Assembly (NCBI GenBank): GCA_038214295.1
Contig: JBBQSA010000015.1
Span: 174 to 64,173 of the forward strand
Direction of reading: 5' to 3'
Length of the DNA stretch: 64,000 nucleotides
DNA from: Gammaproteobacteria bacterium
Lineage (GTDB): Bacteria > Pseudomonadota > Gammaproteobacteria > Steroidobacterales > GCA-2729495
Shown: positions 20,563-26,635 of the stretch, in pieces
Numbering within the stretch: position 1 is the stretch's first letter
How the letters are laid out: the number at the start of each line of letters is the position of its first letter
Notes under the pieces: generated by a model
The model's database searches: none
What the model was told of the DNA's origin: nothing
What the model saw: only the letters and a program-made list of their open reading frames with translations
Translations under genes and position numbers: made by a program

Positions 20563-21558
20563 TCAGCGGTAGCGCAGGCGCTTGCAGATCCGCACCTCGC
20601 ACTGGCCACACTTCGGCACCGTTCCACACAGGTCCCCGTGGTCCTGCGCGGTGAACAGGCTGAACAGGTTCGCCACCAGGCGCGGATCAAGCGCCGCGTG
20701 CTCGGCCCAGTTCCAGACGAGCACATCCGCCTCCCCGGGACTGAGGGGCGTGTGCGAGAGCCCGAAGCGGCCAGGCCCCGCCAACCGGGCCAGGAGGTCG
20801 GTGGCGGCGACCTTTGGCTTGACCGGCCCGTCACCCGCCTTCGCGAGCGCCGCGTCCACATCAATCTTGTTGCGCCGGAAGGTGGCGCGCACCTGCTCCA
20901 CGAGTTCCGCCGGGTGGGAATGCGCACGATTGCGCCGCAGCCAGTAGTAGGCCTGGGTCATCCCGCCGCCCACCAGGTCCGGCAGGTCCTCGAATTCCTC
21001 CCGGCAAAAAAAGCGCTCCTGCAGCTCCGGCGCGAAGAACTCGAGGATCTCCTGGCGGCTCACCCGCGACGGGCCCATCCGGCCGCTCGGCTGACCCGGG
21101 TACCGGGGATGCCAGTGCAGCAACACGAAGTCCCCGTCCTCGGCGATGGCGGAGAGGACCCGCTGGCGGTAGGCAGCGTGGCGCACCACGTCCATGTTAT
21201 GCAGCAGGCCGTGATCCAGCACGAGGTCGAAGGGCTCGGGGACCACCCACTCCGCGATGTCCGCCTCGACCGGCCGGACGGTGACGCCGGCCTGCTGCGC
21301 CCGGGCCTGCGTGTACTCCAGCGCCTTCGGCATGAAATCGAGCGAGGTGACGTCCCAGCCCTTCTTCGCCAGGTAAACGGAGTCCGTACCGGCGCCGCAG
21401 CCGATGTCGAGCGCCCGGCCCGGCTTGCGCCGCTCGCAGATCTCGGCGAGGAACACCGTGGGATCCTCGTGGGCCCAGGGCAGGTCCTGCCAGCTCTTTG
21501 CCCAGTCGTAGGTGGCGAAGAAGGTGTTCTTTTCGTGGGTGGTCGGGGAAGTGATCAT
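20563..21558 (-). CDS. Class I SAM-dependent methyltransferase with ~130-aa C-terminal extension ending in a Cys cluster
   Basis: The ATG at 21558 (ATGA overlap with the upstream stop) gives 331 aa. SAM motif I: RALDIGCGAGTDSVYLAKKG. Extension ends ...DLCGTVPKCGQCEVRICKRLRYR. The upstream part of the 458-aa track ORF is shadow. Confidence 0.75.
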   Translation of the reverse strand: MITSPTTHEKNTFFATYDWAKSWQDLPWAHEDPTVFLAEICERRKPGRALDIGCGAGTDSVYLAKKGWDVTSLDFMPKALEYTQARAQQAGVTVRPVEADIAEWVVPEPFDLVLDHGLLHNMDVVRHAAYRQRVLSAIAEDGDFVLLHWHPRYPGQPSGRMGPSRVSRQEILEFFAPELQERFFCREEFEDLPDLVGGGMTQAYYWLRRNRAHSHPAELVEQVRATFRRNKIDVDAALAKAGDGPVKPKVAATDLLARLAGPGRFGLSHTPLSPGEADVLVWNWAEHAALDPRLVANLFSLFTAQDHGDLCGTVPKCGQCEVRICKRLRYR

Positions 21559-22649
21559 GTGCTGGTACTCCTGGCACGGGGGCCGACGATGTTCATTATG
21601 CGGGCCGCTGGCCCGTTGGTCCTGCCGCTCCGCCACTTCGCCTCGTAGCCCAGGCCGAGGCGCAGCAGCCGCTCGAGCAGCGCCCCGTACGGCAGGCCGC
21701 CGTTGGCGGCCGACTCGGCAAAGTCCTCGTCCTTGCTGAGGTTCGGGTTGCAGTTGGCCTCCAGCAGGTACACCCGCCCGTCGGGACGCAGGCGAAAATC
21801 CATGCGTGCGTAGCCGCTGAGGTGCAGGGCGCGGTAGATGCGCTTGCTGAAGCGGCGTAACTGTTCCTCCGCACCCGGACCGAGCCTGCCCGCCTTGCCC
21901 GTGCGGATGCCGTGCTTTTGCTGGTACTTGCGATCCCATTTCACCTTGCGGGTGGCGATGCCGGCCATCACGTCCGGCAGGGTGCCGAAATCCATCTCCC
22001 AGACCGGGTGGGTGGTCAGCCGCTCGTTGCCATCCACGGCGACGTAGAGTTCCCGGCCCTCGATGTACTCCTCGACCAGGGCGTCGGTCCGGGTGTGTTC
22101 GTGGATGAAGTCGATGCGTTCCTTGAGGCGCGCCCGGTCCTCCACGATCGACGCCTGGGAAATGCCGAGCGACGCGTCCTCGGTGGCTGACTTCACGAAC
22201 AGCGGGTAGCTGAGCTTCTGCGACAGCTGGTAGCGGCGCCCGCGGCGGAACAGCGCGAATCGCGGCGTCGGAATCCGGTGGAAGGCCAGCACCTGCTTGG
22301 AGAGGACCTTGTCACGAGACAGCATCATGCCGCGGGGATTGCAGCCGGTGTAGGGCTGCCGCATCAGCTCCAGGTACGCCACGATGTGCTGGTCGTAGGA
22401 GACGACGCCCTGGAATTCCTGCAGGAGATTGAACGCCACCTCGGGCTGCCACTCGACGATCCGCGTACGCAGTTCCGCCAGGTTGTCGTAGAGCCCCAGC
22501 ACCTGCACGTTGTGCCCCGCCTCCCGCAGCCAGGACATCACGTCGTATTCCGTCTGCCACTCACTGATCTGCTGCTCGCTGCAACCGGCCAGGCTGGCCG
22601 GGGGCACGAGGCTCTCGTGCGTCAGGATCAGGACCCGGCGCTTCCTCAC
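21555..22649 (-). CDS. ATP-grasp enzyme of the D-Ala-D-Ala-ligase-like family
   Basis: GTG at 22649 (GTGA overlap with the upstream stop). Ddl-like pattern: VLILTHE.., RDKVLSKQVLAFHRIPTPRF, YPLFVKSATEDASLGIS, VEEYIEGRELYV, ARMDFRL..DGRVYLLEANCNPNL. Confidence 0.8.
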   Translation of the reverse strand: MRKRRVLILTHESLVPPASLAGCSEQQISEWQTEYDVMSWLREAGHNVQVLGLYDNLAELRTRIVEWQPEVAFNLLQEFQGVVSYDQHIVAYLELMRQPYTGCNPRGMMLSRDKVLSKQVLAFHRIPTPRFALFRRGRRYQLSQKLSYPLFVKSATEDASLGISQASIVEDRARLKERIDFIHEHTRTDALVEEYIEGRELYVAVDGNERLTTHPVWEMDFGTLPDVMAGIATRKVKWDRKYQQKHGIRTGKAGRLGPGAEEQLRRFSKRIYRALHLSGYARMDFRLRPDGRVYLLEANCNPNLSKDEDFAESAANGGLPYGALLERLLRLGLGYEAKWRSGRTNGPAARIMNIVGPRARSTST

Positions 22650-23677
22650 AGGGCGTAGCGCTCCCGGCCGCGGCGCACGAAATCGAAGAGGATGTGCTCC
22701 AGCAGGCCGAGCGCCTCCCGCTTGGTCAAGCGCAGCGGCTGGTTGACGCACAGCTCCAGGTCCCGGCAGCGACGGATCACCAGGCGCAGGACGTGGCTCA
22801 CGAGGTACGGGTGCAACCGGCAGCGGCGCACAAGCAGACGGCGCAGCTCGGGCCGGACCTGGCGCAGGAAGGCCGCGGCGGACTGCCGGCCGGGGGTTCC
22901 GTCCGGCGGCGCAAAGACCCTCCGCAGGCGGCGGTCGTACCGCCGCGTCTCGCTGCGGTCAGGGCTGTTCAGCTTGGCGGCGTAGTGCTCCCGGAGGGTG
23001 TCGCTGTTCCTGCCCAGCGGCTCGACTTGCGCACTGCGACGTACCGGGGCCGGCTCGGCACGGATCTCGACCATCAGGTCGTCGACGAAGCGGAGCTTGC
23101 GCACCGCGTGCCACTGCTCATAGTCGGTGCGCCAGGTGGAGTTGGGCGCCAGCCAGACGGCGAAGGTCTCGGCAAAATCCTCTGTGGGGTGGCTCTGGGC
23201 ATACCAGTGGCCAAGGTGCATGACAAAGTCGCGGCTCGTCGTACGCGGGGTATAGCGGCTCGGGTAGGGCCGGGATGCCGGGCCAAACACCTGGCGCCAG
23301 CGCCTGCGCCGGCGCAGGCGGTAGGCATTGTCGATGGCGTGGCCGGCTTCATGGCGAAGGATCCGCTGCAGCCAGCGGGCATTACCCCCCTCCACCTCGT
23401 GCATCTGGCGGCGCTCCAGGGCAGCGAGGCGCGGGTGCGCCAGGTAGAACGGGATCGCGAAACCCGGGACGCCGTCAGGACAGAACCACTCGACCGACAG
23501 CCACACGTGGGGCCGGAAACGGAAGCCGCGCTTGCCCAGTTCGCCGTAGAGCCGGTCGACGGCAGGCGCCAGGGGGCTGCCGGCGAGCTTCAGTCCCAGG
23601 TCCCGGAAACGCAGGTCAAGGAGCGCCTCGTCATCCAGTCCGGCCCACCAGGGCGGCGTGGCGGTAAATGGGGGCAT
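22646..23677 (-). CDS. Putative zinc-binding metallopeptidase-like protein (HExxH)
   Basis: 343 aa with ATG at 23677. HExxH in RILRHEAGHAIDNAY, followed by HPTEDFAETFAVWL. From memory it resembles the 'putative zinc-binding metallo-peptidase' family often found next to ATP-grasp genes. Confidence 0.6.
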   Translation of the reverse strand: MPPFTATPPWWAGLDDEALLDLRFRDLGLKLAGSPLAPAVDRLYGELGKRGFRFRPHVWLSVEWFCPDGVPGFAIPFYLAHPRLAALERRQMHEVEGGNARWLQRILRHEAGHAIDNAYRLRRRRRWRQVFGPASRPYPSRYTPRTTSRDFVMHLGHWYAQSHPTEDFAETFAVWLAPNSTWRTDYEQWHAVRKLRFVDDLMVEIRAEPAPVRRSAQVEPLGRNSDTLREHYAAKLNSPDRSETRRYDRRLRRVFAPPDGTPGRQSAAAFLRQVRPELRRLLVRRCRLHPYLVSHVLRLVIRRCRDLELCVNQPLRLTKREALGLLEHILFDFVRRGRERYAL

Positions 23678-23690
23678 GTCCCCATTTACC
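23663..23690 (-). promoter_or_regulatory. 11-bp perfect hairpin enclosing the SD and start codon of the metallopeptidase-like gene
   Basis: Arms ggtaaatgggg (23663-23673) and ccccatttacc (23680-23690) with the 6-nt loop gcatgt. On the mRNA this reads GGUAAAUGGGG-ACAUGC-CCCCAUUUACC, so the AUG (23677-23675) sits in the loop and the G-rich SD in the stem. Confidence 0.6.
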
Positions 23691-23708
23691 GCACCAGCCC
23701 TGAAAAGA

Positions 23709-23734
23709 GAAGGGCCGCATTGCTGCGGCCCTTC
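23709..23734 (-). terminator. Intrinsic terminator/attenuator hairpin in the leader of the peptidase/ATP-grasp/methyltransferase operon
   Basis: 10-bp stem gaagggccgc / gcggcccttc with a 6-nt loop. On the minus strand it is followed by UCUCUUUUC. It lies 32 nt upstream of the 23677 start codon. Confidence 0.6.
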
Positions 23735-23837
23735 GTGAGATCGGGTGTCCCCAATCCCTTGCTTGGCGAGCCCTTCTGGCGGGGCCGCGCTCGAGCCTCT
23801 CAGATGGCAGGGGTTACCAGATTGCCACCAGGCGCCA

Positions 23838-23924
23838 CTAGCCCAGAAACGGATCCAAGGTCTGGTGCAGCGTCAGGCCGAGACACGAAGGGTGGATGGA
23901 CACCGCGAGAATCTCACTAGACAT
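23838..23924 (-). CDS. 28-codon small ORF (leader peptide or small peptide) behind an extended perfect Shine-Dalgarno
   Basis: Not in the track (below 60 aa). The minus strand reads AAGGAGGTGATCCA-ATG TCT AGT ... GGC TAG, giving MSSEILAVSIHPSCLGLTLHQTLDPFLG. SD core to ATG spacing is 7 nt. Whether it is translated is untested. Confidence 0.35.
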   Translation of the reverse strand: MSSEILAVSIHPSCLGLTLHQTLDPFLG

Positions 23925-24082
23925 TGGATCACCTCCTTTATACCGGGCCTTAAGCCCCTGGGAACGACAGCCTGAGTATCCAGCGATACCCGGAAAAATC
24001 CAAGATGCACCGCACACAATTCAACTCACTGGCTGGACCTGCCGGGAGGTGTGCTAGTCTCAAAAGAGGGGTAAAAAAAACT

Positions 24083-26635
24083 ATGAATAAGATGCTCTGC
24101 CAGACTGTCTCCAAGGGGTTCACTGTCGGCATCCTGGTGGTTGCCGGAATTGTGGGGGCGCCACCGGCCAGGGCCCAGGAGGCTCTTGAGGAAATCACGG
24201 TCACGGCCCGGAAATTTGCGGAGAGCCTGCAGGAGGCGCCTCTGTCGGTGGTCGTGCTCACCGGCGAAGCGATGGCCGAGTCAGGCGTCAGCCGTATCGA
24301 GGAACTGGTTTCCTACGTACCTAATTTCGCGATGTCCGAGACCGGTATCGGTACCAATCTCTACGTGCGCGGTATCGGGTCCGGCATCAACCAGGGTTTC
24401 GAGCAGTCGGTGGGCCTCTACATCGACGGCATCTACTATGGCCGCGGCCAGCTCACCCGGGCCCCCTTCATGGACATGGCCCAGGCCGAGGCCCTGCGTG
24501 GTCCCCAGGCCATCCTGCTCGGTAACAACAGTATTGCCGGCGCACTGAACTTCACCACGGCAAAGCCCACCGATTACCTGCAGGGCTCCGTCAGCGCGCT
24601 CTACGAGCCAACCCATAACGAGCAGGAATTGAACGGCATGATCTCCGGCCCGCTGTCCGACAAGTGGGGGGTCCGCTTCGCGGGCCGCTACCGGACCATG
24701 GACGGTTACATCAAGAACACCCTGCTCGGCCGTGACGAACCGAACCGTGAAGAGAAGAGCGCCCGCGTCACCTTCGCCTACAAGGGCGACCGGGTAGACG
24801 GCACGCTGAAGCTGGAGAACAACAAGTTCGACGTCCGGGGCCGGCAGATCGAGATCATCCGGGCGGATCCCGCAGTAACCCGGGGCTCCAGCCAGACCGG
24901 CTTCAGCAACAACACCGGCAGCTCGGGCCTCTGGGGCCCGGGCTACAACTACCTCCAGTTCCTGGACGAGTTCTTCGACGGCGCCGCACCCGCCACGCCG
25001 CCCGGCTTCAATCCCGCCACCGACTACGTGCTCGACAACCCGGGCCTGACGGACGGCAACCTCAACTACCGTCGCCAGTCCAACGGCGACAAGAGCAACA
25101 ACGACATCAACGCCATTGTCGGCACCCTGAACTTCGTGCTCGGCGACTACACCCTGACCGCGACCGGCGGCCACCTGGACTACAGCTACGTGGAGGACTG
25201 CGACTGCGACTTCACGGGCGCCGACCTCTTCCGCCTCACGTCGAAGGAAGACTACAGCCAGAACAGCCTCGAACTGCGCCTGGCCTCGCCCAAGGAAGAC
25301 CGCCTGCGCTTCCTCGCTGGCACCTATTACCAGCACGACGAACTCGATTTCGGCGACCAGATCTTCCTGCCGCTGGACAGCGGCGTCGTGCGGCTGGTCG
25401 GGCTGGCCACCACCGGCAACCCCGAGGGTGCCTTCGAGTCCCTGGGCAACACCTCCGCCTTCCGGGATTTCCATCAGAACACCACCACAAGCTCGGTGTT
25501 CGGCCAACTGTCCTACGACATCACCGAGCGCTGGCGGGCCAGTGCCGGCGTCCGCTACAGCCACATCGAGAAGGAAGCCACCCGTATCCTCCGGGAAGGC
25601 GACCTGGACCGGAATCCGTTCAACATCAATGATGCCAACGACTTCGACCGGCTGGCTGCCGGCGCCGTGCTCTTTGCCTCGATCTTCAAGGTGTCCTTCC
25701 ACCAGCTGAGCGGCAACCGGACCGAGAACAGCACCGCCTGGGAACTGGTCACCGACTTTGACCTCACCGACGACATCCTGCTGTATGGCTCGGTGAAGAA
25801 GGGCTTCAAGGGCGGTGGCTTTGACGTGCGCTCCAACAGCGAGCCAGTCCCGGGCTCCACGGGCTCGGGCACCCTGTTCCCCGAGTCCTCCCTGTCAGCG
25901 GTCGAGAACAATGTGTCCCCCGGCACCTTCGAGTTCGAGGACGAGCAGGCCCTGGCCTTCGAGGTGGGCTCCAAGCTGACCCTCCTGAACGGCACGGCCG
26001 AGCTGAACATCGCTGCCTTCCGGACGAACTTCGACAACCTGCAGGTCAGCATCTTCGACGGCACGCTGGGCTTCAATGTGGGCAACGCGGCCAAGGCGAT
26101 CACCCAGGGCGTGGAGCTGGACGGCCGCTGGGCCCTCACCGACGACTGGTCACTCAACGGCTCGCTGGGCTACCTGGACTTCAAGTTCGACGACTTCAAG
26201 AACGGCCAGTGCAACCAGGGCCAGCCCGCCAACCAGCCCGGCGGCTTCTGCGACTACACTGGCCAGACGAACCAGTACGTCGCGGACTGGTCGGGCAACG
26301 TGGGCGTCAGCTACCAGCACCCGCTCACCGAGAAGCTTGTCTTCAAGTCCACGCTGGATAGCCAGTTCACCACCAGTTACAACCCGTCCCAGAACCTGGA
26401 TCCCCGGGTGGAGCAGGCCGCCTACGCCATCTGGAACCTGCGGGTGGGGCTGGCCTCGGCGGACGAGAAGTGGGAGGTGGCGCTACTCGGCCGCAACCTG
26501 ACGGACGAGGCGGTCGTGTCCTATGCCAACGACACGCCACTTGCCTTCAGCCAGTTCGGCACGCCCACCTGGTATGGCTTCATCGAGCGCTCCCGCAGCG
26601 TGGCGCTGCAAGCCAGCTACAAGTTCGGGGAGTGA
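24083..26635 (+). CDS. TonB-dependent outer-membrane receptor
   Basis: The ATG at 24083 lies behind AGAGGGG. Signal peptide MNKMLCQTVSKGFTVGILVVAGIVGAPPARA, TonB-box/plug EEITVTARK..., and a long beta-barrel with NLTDE..Y near the C-terminus. The upstream 26 codons of the track ORF are discarded. Confidence 0.9.
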   Translation: MNKMLCQTVSKGFTVGILVVAGIVGAPPARAQEALEEITVTARKFAESLQEAPLSVVVLTGEAMAESGVSRIEELVSYVPNFAMSETGIGTNLYVRGIGSGINQGFEQSVGLYIDGIYYGRGQLTRAPFMDMAQAEALRGPQAILLGNNSIAGALNFTTAKPTDYLQGSVSALYEPTHNEQELNGMISGPLSDKWGVRFAGRYRTMDGYIKNTLLGRDEPNREEKSARVTFAYKGDRVDGTLKLENNKFDVRGRQIEIIRADPAVTRGSSQTGFSNNTGSSGLWGPGYNYLQFLDEFFDGAAPATPPGFNPATDYVLDNPGLTDGNLNYRRQSNGDKSNNDINAIVGTLNFVLGDYTLTATGGHLDYSYVEDCDCDFTGADLFRLTSKEDYSQNSLELRLASPKEDRLRFLAGTYYQHDELDFGDQIFLPLDSGVVRLVGLATTGNPEGAFESLGNTSAFRDFHQNTTTSSVFGQLSYDITERWRASAGVRYSHIEKEATRILREGDLDRNPFNINDANDFDRLAAGAVLFASIFKVSFHQLSGNRTENSTAWELVTDFDLTDDILLYGSVKKGFKGGGFDVRSNSEPVPGSTGSGTLFPESSLSAVENNVSPGTFEFEDEQALAFEVGSKLTLLNGTAELNIAAFRTNFDNLQVSIFDGTLGFNVGNAAKAITQGVELDGRWALTDDWSLNGSLGYLDFKFDDFKNGQCNQGQPANQPGGFCDYTGQTNQYVADWSGNVGVSYQHPLTEKLVFKSTLDSQFTTSYNPSQNLDPRVEQAAYAIWNLRVGLASADEKWEVALLGRNLTDEAVVSYANDTPLAFSQFGTPTWYGFIERSRSVALQASYKFGE

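Follow-up and report, generated by a model that had tools for sequence, protein, structure and literature searches.

The minus-strand site described here is probably the translation-initiation region of a ribosome-opened, structured, stand-alone small mRNA or sRNA, which in this organism would be ~270 nt long. The RNA belongs to a single-copy family that BLAST and pattern searches have shown to be spread through Alpha- and Gammaproteobacteria. Its members combine a Shine-Dalgarno (SD) sequence complementary to the free 16S rRNA tail, a short open reading frame (ORF) whose length is kept while its peptide varies, and a long-range helix between the ORF and the segment before an intrinsic terminator. 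All positions refer to the window, i.e. the whole stretch of 64,000 nucleotides that was analysed. Folds and energies are thermodynamic predictions throughout.

Shine-Dalgarno sequence and transcript

The minus strand at positions 23939-23925 reads AAAGGAGGTGATCCA, which can pair without mismatch with 15 nt of the 16S rRNA 3' tail of the genus. An earlier note on this DNA had pointed out that the plus strand at 23924-23938 (TTGGATCACCTCCTT) is identical to the 16S 3' end; the sequence agrees, and the coordinates were right within one base. The long SD, the ATG, and the 28-codon ORF with its stop at 23840-23838, which it had read from the minus strand, were all present. In the 3.2-Mb genome with 67% G+C, the 13-mer GGATCACCTCCTT occurred once and TCACCTCCTT twice. 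The match of AAAGGAGGTGATCCA exceeds chance and is not a chance match. The 16S gene was not found in this assembly. The 3' end of the organism's 16S rRNA, which the earlier note had proposed to check, was read from three genomes of the same genus and family. All of them have the tail GGCUGGAUCACCUCCUUUCA, and thus 15 contiguous bases are complementary to what is likely the organism's own rRNA (AAAGGAGGUGAUCCA with UGGAUCACCUCCUUU). The predicted energy of this SD duplex is -27.2 kcal/mol, compared with -7.0 kcal/mol for a GGAGG core.

A search with Rfam 15 at the gathering score found neither rRNA nor any other Rfam family in the 64-kb window, in line with the absence of an rRNA gene context noted earlier. 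The reading as a 16S rRNA gene or fragment was rejected: RF00177 had no match in the window or in the genome, and similarity to 16S rRNA ends directly after CCAA. For comparison of the SD core, 40 homologues were fetched by similarity and not by pattern. The invariant core AAGGAGGUGAUC, the exact complement of the free 16S tail, was kept in 39 of them, and one copy starts with U instead of A. The 1-5 nt preceding the AUG varied among the 40 (CA, CC, C, AC, AG, UAA). SD conservation thus stops where the single-stranded 16S tail (GAUCACCUCCUU) enters helix 45. What is constrained is base pairing to the entire free tail, and not merely "a good SD". The SD of the S. meliloti homologue carries a 1-nt insertion, so the perfect complement is not universal.

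A sigma-70-like promoter, represented here by TTGGAT, 17 nt, and GATACT, is common to all gammaproteobacterial homologues. Transcription is predicted to start near 23968, which would give a leader of ~44 nt and an RNA of ~270 nt on the minus strand, from ~23968 to ~23700. The features of the RNA are listed in the table. The earlier note had instead proposed the hexamers TTCCCA (23964-23959) and TATAAA (23942-23937), with a transcript starting almost at the SD. Both hexamers are present, but they are not the conserved promoter. TATAAA is kept in the closest relatives only, and this promoter was rejected because TATAAA is otherwise unconserved; it would also begin the transcript inside the SD, where the conserved promoter predicts the longer leader. 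A simple promoter scan detected no promoter in the region. In other lineages the leader is short, A-rich, and unstructured, often with UUCAAC.

Table. Positions of promoter, leader, ORF, helix, and terminator elements of the RNA gene in the window
Feature	Position	Strand	Remarks
-35 hexamer TTGGAT	23998..24003	-	CTTGSA/TTGACA-type box in homologues, 17 nt upstream of -10
-10 hexamer GATACT	23975..23980	-	(G/C)ATACT kept in gammaproteobacterial homologues at equal distance from the SD
Leader hairpin CCCAGGGGCUUAAGGCCCGG	23943..23962	-	Same-genus copies only
Extended Shine-Dalgarno AAAGGAGGUGAUCCA	23925..23939	-	15-nt perfect complement of the 16S 3' tail
28-codon ORF	23838..23924	-	ATG 23924-23922, TAG 23840-23838; encodes MSSEILAVSIHPSCLGLTLHQTLDPFLG
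P1 5' strand GUGAGAU, codons 3-5	23911..23917	-	Pairs with 23741-23735
P2 5' strand GGUGUCC, codons 7-9	23898..23904	-	Pairs with GGACACC of the 3' block
Internal 16S-tail mimic UUGGAUCC, near ORF end	23851..23858	-	Genus-specific; complementary to start-region GAUCCAA
Conserved 3' block GGGAUUGGGGACACCCG	23742..23758	-	Second conserved block in the order
P1 3' strand AUCUCAC	23735..23741	-	Adjoins the terminator
Intrinsic terminator	23699..23734	-	11-bp stem 23734-23709, then UCUUUUC; stem covaries across the family

RNA structure and constraint on the ORF

Codons 3-13 of the ORF (about +8 to +45) are predicted to base-pair with the stretch that directly precedes the terminator, and these pairs covary. 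For P1, the combinations GUGU/ACAC, AUGAG/CUCAU (S. meliloti), GUGGGAU/AUCCUAC, and GUGAA/UUCGC were found; for P2, there were 5-6 pair types per position in 99 sequences. The MAFFT consensus fold contained P1 and the terminator only, and P2 was obtained via local-pair alignment and alignment-free pair counting. In the alignment-free count, nucleotides 7-45 of the ORF had, on average, 22.9 predicted partners within the 45 nt that precede the terminator, compared with 6.3 when the 3' segment was dinucleotide-shuffled (Wilcoxon p = 9e-19). Of 108 RNAs, 99 have at least 10 predicted long-range pairs. An apical hairpin GGAG-CAGC-CUYC is present in many lineages, with the stop codon just 3' of the apex. 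Pairing is lower at the SD and AUG than in the remaining RNA, with a predicted unpaired probability of 0.56 versus 0.27.

The 3' block can either pair with the 5' part of the ORF, forming P2, or fold locally as GAUUGGG-GACA-CCCGAUC. Compensatory changes from GGG/CCC to GAA/UUC were found in the local hairpin, and this alternative fold suggests two states. The block is conserved within orders only, so that no family-wide effector sequence is evident. Near the ORF end, where the window RNA has the mimic UUGGAUCC, the relatives L002, L004, and L005 have CACUCCUUCC at the equivalent position; the two complement different segments of the extended SD. For the window RNA with its native leader, the lowest-energy fold pairs UUGGAUCC with the start region and thereby hides it. 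Such genus-specific mimics may add a "closed" state.

The position of the stop codon is constrained on both sides. Of 134 non-identical homologues, 125 have their first in-frame stop at codon 22-30 (mode 26), and in none is it earlier than codon 18 or later than codon 38. Read in the +1 frame, just 6 of the 134 have a first stop within this range, and values scatter from 4 to >75. The window ORF is very probably translated.

The homologue in S. meliloti (L162) is identical to sORF1/SEP1 of S. meliloti 2011, which is located on the ncRNA SMc06302 (Hadjeras et al. 2023, microLife, PMC10117765). The peptide MSNEISDLAMDMGEVKESRQPSA (CP004140.1:1048709-1048780) is supported by Ribo-seq, by an SPA-tagged fusion on a Western blot, and by 1 PSM in mass spectrometry. 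Its translation efficiency of about 29 (34 and 24 in two replicates) was at the top of 54 novel non-annotated translated sORFs, and its authors presented it as a new small protein "conserved in Rhizobiaceae" (PMC10117765). An earlier dataset has the level of SMc06302 rising in stationary phase. The 5' regions of the window RNA and the S. meliloti RNA (16S-tail complement, AUG, UCU, and P1 strand) are 94% identical over 35 nt with one indel. Like the window RNA, the SEP1 RNA has the 5' region AAAGGAAGGUGAUCCAAUGUCUAAUGAGAU, an apical GGCAGCCCUC hairpin, a GGAAGGGCCGC terminator, and the P1 helix, here with the compensatory AUGAG/CUCAU pairs. In both cases a short ORF, of 23 codons in S. meliloti and 28 in the window, lies on a terminator-ended stand-alone transcript, which for the window is a predicted one. 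Translation was demonstrated by experiment for S. meliloti SEP1, and it is predicted for the window ORF. The accessible text of the SEP1 paper contains no RNA family spanning two classes, no complement of the full 16S tail, no long-range helix, and no ORF constraint limited to length. No description of the RNA family, including for SMc06302, was found in the open-access full-text literature.

One reading of these data is that the small protein itself matters: the SEP1 family would be fast-evolving acidic or neutral peptides of 22-28 aa, and the structure and SD would only set the expression level. The Western blot and the PSM fit this reading. The peptides are alike within lineages, and an N terminus M-S-(S/G/N/R)-(E/G/D) recurs among the homologues. 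Only synonymous variants of codon 2 (TCT/TCG/TCA) occurred in the samples, one of which was collected with a search pattern that fixed the first two bases of this codon. However, this N terminus is all that peptides of different orders share, and its codons belong to the invariant AUGUCU and to the P1 strand. Among the 61 copies that are 26 codons long, the entropy of codon positions 1/2/3 was 1.60/1.59/1.56, i.e. with neither codon periodicity nor an excess at third positions. Synonymous and non-synonymous codon changes in close pairs stood at 154:370, a synonymous share of ~29% that is close to neutral. By codon-position entropy and synonymous ratio, selection on the peptide was thus undetectable, and no Pfam or NCBIfam family matched the peptides. 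Because RNA pairing and codons constrain the same nucleotides, weak selection on the peptide could be masked. A fixed length with a free sequence is typical of regulatory ORFs. Taken with these observations, we consider a function through the small protein unlikely.

The earlier note had suggested a strongly translated small peptide. Of this, translation is very probable and the length of the ORF is kept, but the peptide carries no detectable selection. It had also proposed to compare the conservation of base pairing with that of the reading frame; in the homologues both are kept, and only the peptide sequence is not. Conservation of ORF length without that of the peptide suggests that it is the act of translating that matters.

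Proposed opening of the RNA by the ribosome

P1 begins at +8, inside the mRNA channel of the 30S subunit, so that accommodation of the start codon would require unfolding. To free the region through +16 is predicted to cost 19.3 kcal/mol in the window, against a family median of 10.9 kcal/mol. In the proposed mechanism, the 12-15-bp SD:anti-SD duplex (about -27 kcal/mol) would anchor the 30S subunit on the RNA. Given these opening costs, the long SD would act as a standby anchor for a locked ORF. Of the roles considered in the earlier note, a ribosome-loading site fits these predictions: a helix closes the start region, and the long SD is able to offset the energy needed to open it. The translating ribosome would then unzip the whole 5' strand and halt before the 3' domain and terminator, and the freed 3' strand would refold locally. 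The two-sided limit on ORF length would fit unzipping up to the apex without reaching the 3' domain or terminator. Selection would act on the act and extent of translation and not on the peptide. The RNA would behave as a two-state switch that ribosomes open, or would report translational capacity; trans pairing, protein binding, and the stability of the RNA itself are candidate outputs. Homologous RNAs elsewhere are 150-250 nt long.

Initiation from a standby site that compensates for mRNA structure is reportedly the model of de Smit and van Duin. A strong SD in this type of model lets the 30S subunit wait on a folded start, and the energies predicted for the window match it. Use of an extended SD is treated in an S. 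aureus study (PMC13009471). Standby and extended-SD cases are ordinary protein-coding mRNAs, whereas here the 12-15-nt tail complement is the top conserved feature and the peptide is unconstrained. The mRNAs of type I toxins such as hok and aapA1 likewise use long-distance 5'-3' pairing to govern access to a short ORF. In contrast to the toxins, the peptides encoded here are polar and variable, neither hydrophobic nor toxin-like, and match no family. In contrast to hok and aapA1, the SD is predicted to be exposed and not sequestered in most lineages.

An RNA that clamps the whole 16S tail could also serve as a decoy for 30S subunits, which parks or protects ribosomes or samples the integrity of the tail with little productive translation. 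Conservation spans exactly the complement of the free 16S tail, the duplex is predicted at -27 kcal/mol, and the start region is structured from +8. In the S. meliloti data, footprints are dense and yet only 1 PSM was obtained, and the ncRNA is up in stationary phase. Such a very high Ribo-seq occupancy could come from ribosomes retained at the start and not from productive translation, which is a point against the ribosome-opened switch. However, an RNA that acted purely as a decoy would require no AUG and no stop at a set distance, and both are conserved; moreover, the tagged ORF is translated in S. meliloti. Ribosomes also far outnumber a typical single-copy sRNA. Altogether, the decoy appears improbable.

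For the ribosome-opened RNA, we tentatively put forward a wider interpretation, which we hold to be possible but doubtful. It would represent a new class of RNA in which the ribosome is the ligand. The full 16S-tail complement would capture a 30S subunit, and a single round of translation of the length-calibrated ORF would unzip the long-range helix and flip the RNA into a second conformation. In this way the cell would read free ribosomes, translational capacity, or the integrity of the 16S tail. The family is conserved across Alpha- and Gammaproteobacteria.

Distribution and gene context of the RNA family

The RNA unit is single-copy in this genome. Because they are based on BLAST and exact patterns, all distribution figures are lower bounds. 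Of 41 relatives, 17 gave a BLAST match to the unit, as did 133 of the 401 genomes searched from the same order, with matches at a single locus per genome. The matches comprise two conserved blocks, one of 30-70 nt at the 5' end and one of 50 nt at the 3' end including the terminator. The exact 22-mer GGAGGTGATCCAATGTCTAGTG is present in at least 119 species records. Among the matches listed, isolates are Agrobacterium pusense, A. tomkonis, A. salinitolerans, Pelagibacterium, Henriciella, Litorivicinus, LSUCC0096, and LSUCC0112, and MAGs are labelled Woeseia, Pseudohongiella, Hyphomicrobiaceae, Rhodobacterales, and Kiloniellales. The family also occurs in S. meliloti, Rhizobium, and Shinella, whereas none of 5,426 E. 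coli genomes contains it. Among 401 genomes sampled evenly across the phylum, a strict pattern matched 17 (reversed-pattern control, 0), so the distribution is patchy and not universal. The MAG labels Klebsiella and Rheinheimera on some carriers are evidently unreliable: the lake MAG L109 is the same contig as C25 of the same-genus genome G006, and these titles are therefore probably wrong. The lake MAGs bearing them (L060, L066, L109, L116, L145, and L149) carry the RNA element described here, which is GC-rich.

No Rfam 15 family matched the RNA, whether in the window at the gathering score, at the locus at E <= 10, or in eight other members. A sub-threshold similarity was to RF02353, the Bradyrhizobiaceae sRNA BjrC68, for which the 3' hairpin and terminator of the window score 35.8 bits (E = 8e-8). 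Membership was rejected, the score being below the gathering score of 39 and the match covering 23702-23767 only, without SD, ORF, or P1. The eight other members did not reach the BjrC68 gathering score either, and papers that mention BjrC68 give no function for it.

The best neighbour gene cluster is common to 16 of 142 loci, and no neighbour is conserved across the family. The genes downstream of the RNA differ between lineages and are often convergent, which argues for an independent gene and against a leader. In the window, the RNA gene lies between a divergent gene for a TonB-dependent receptor (24083-26635, plus strand) and minus-strand genes for Peptidase_Mx, ATP-grasp, and methyltransferase proteins. 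The RNA unit ends 22 nt upstream of the first of these, a 343-aa gene on the same strand, in an order kept in some same-genus relatives, and in the window CCCUUCGUG in the ORF can pair over 9 bp with CACGAAGGG of the terminator (-16.3 kcal/mol); nevertheless, a cis-acting leader or attenuator controlling the three genes, like the regulatory leader peptide of a downstream operon proposed in the earlier note, is very improbable, since the RNA has its own terminator, its neighbours are unconserved and often convergent, the ORF has no run of regulatory codons, and ORF-to-terminator pairing in 108 homologues does not differ from shuffled controls (-10.9 versus -10.5 kcal/mol, p = 0.15). The terminator-antiterminator mechanism was rejected family-wide, the 9-bp pairing in the window being a local peculiarity.

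Several further observations were made around the gene. The downstream cluster (20563-23677, minus strand), which encodes a putative zinc metallopeptidase (Peptidase_Mx), an ATP-grasp/D-Ala-D-Ala-ligase-like protein with a weak RimK match, and a SAM methyltransferase, is common to some same-genus relatives. The ATG (23677) of the Peptidase_Mx gene lies in the loop of a 13-bp perfect inverted repeat at 23656-23690, which on the minus strand reads GCGGTAAATGGGG-ACATG-CCCCATTTACCGC; this repeat may serve to control translation or may form a second hairpin behind the terminator. A REP-like palindrome GCGACTGTAGGAGCGCCTTCAGGCGCGA is located ~20-60 nt past the RNA terminator in the relatives L003, L004, L006, L019, and L023. 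One same-genus copy (L011/L027, G006) has lost the 3' block and the terminator; its RNA ends at ~145 nt and enters a REP-like element. In Pelagibacterium halotolerans (L098, 7052-7203), the RNA gene is followed after ~70 nt by an FMN riboswitch (114 bits).

Attenuator-derived and dual-function sRNAs are also small, terminator-ended, structured RNAs that are translated as well. SgrS/SgrT, Spot 42/SpfP, and rnTrpL/peTrpL encode conserved, functional peptides and have known base-pairing seeds. In contrast to such RNAs, the peptide here is free to vary, and the RNA is not derived from an operon leader.

The ribosome-opened RNA thus appears as a stand-alone gene in two proteobacterial classes, and its most conserved feature is the complete complement of the tail with which the ribosome docks on mRNA. 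Conservation of the ORF in length only points to translation as the signal, and not to its product. This principle is usually tied to operon leaders, and we know of no free-standing RNAs that use it. S. meliloti SEP1 would belong to a broad RNA family and would not be a Rhizobiaceae-specific small protein. With family members in the genetically tractable S. meliloti and Agrobacterium, the hypothesis is directly testable.
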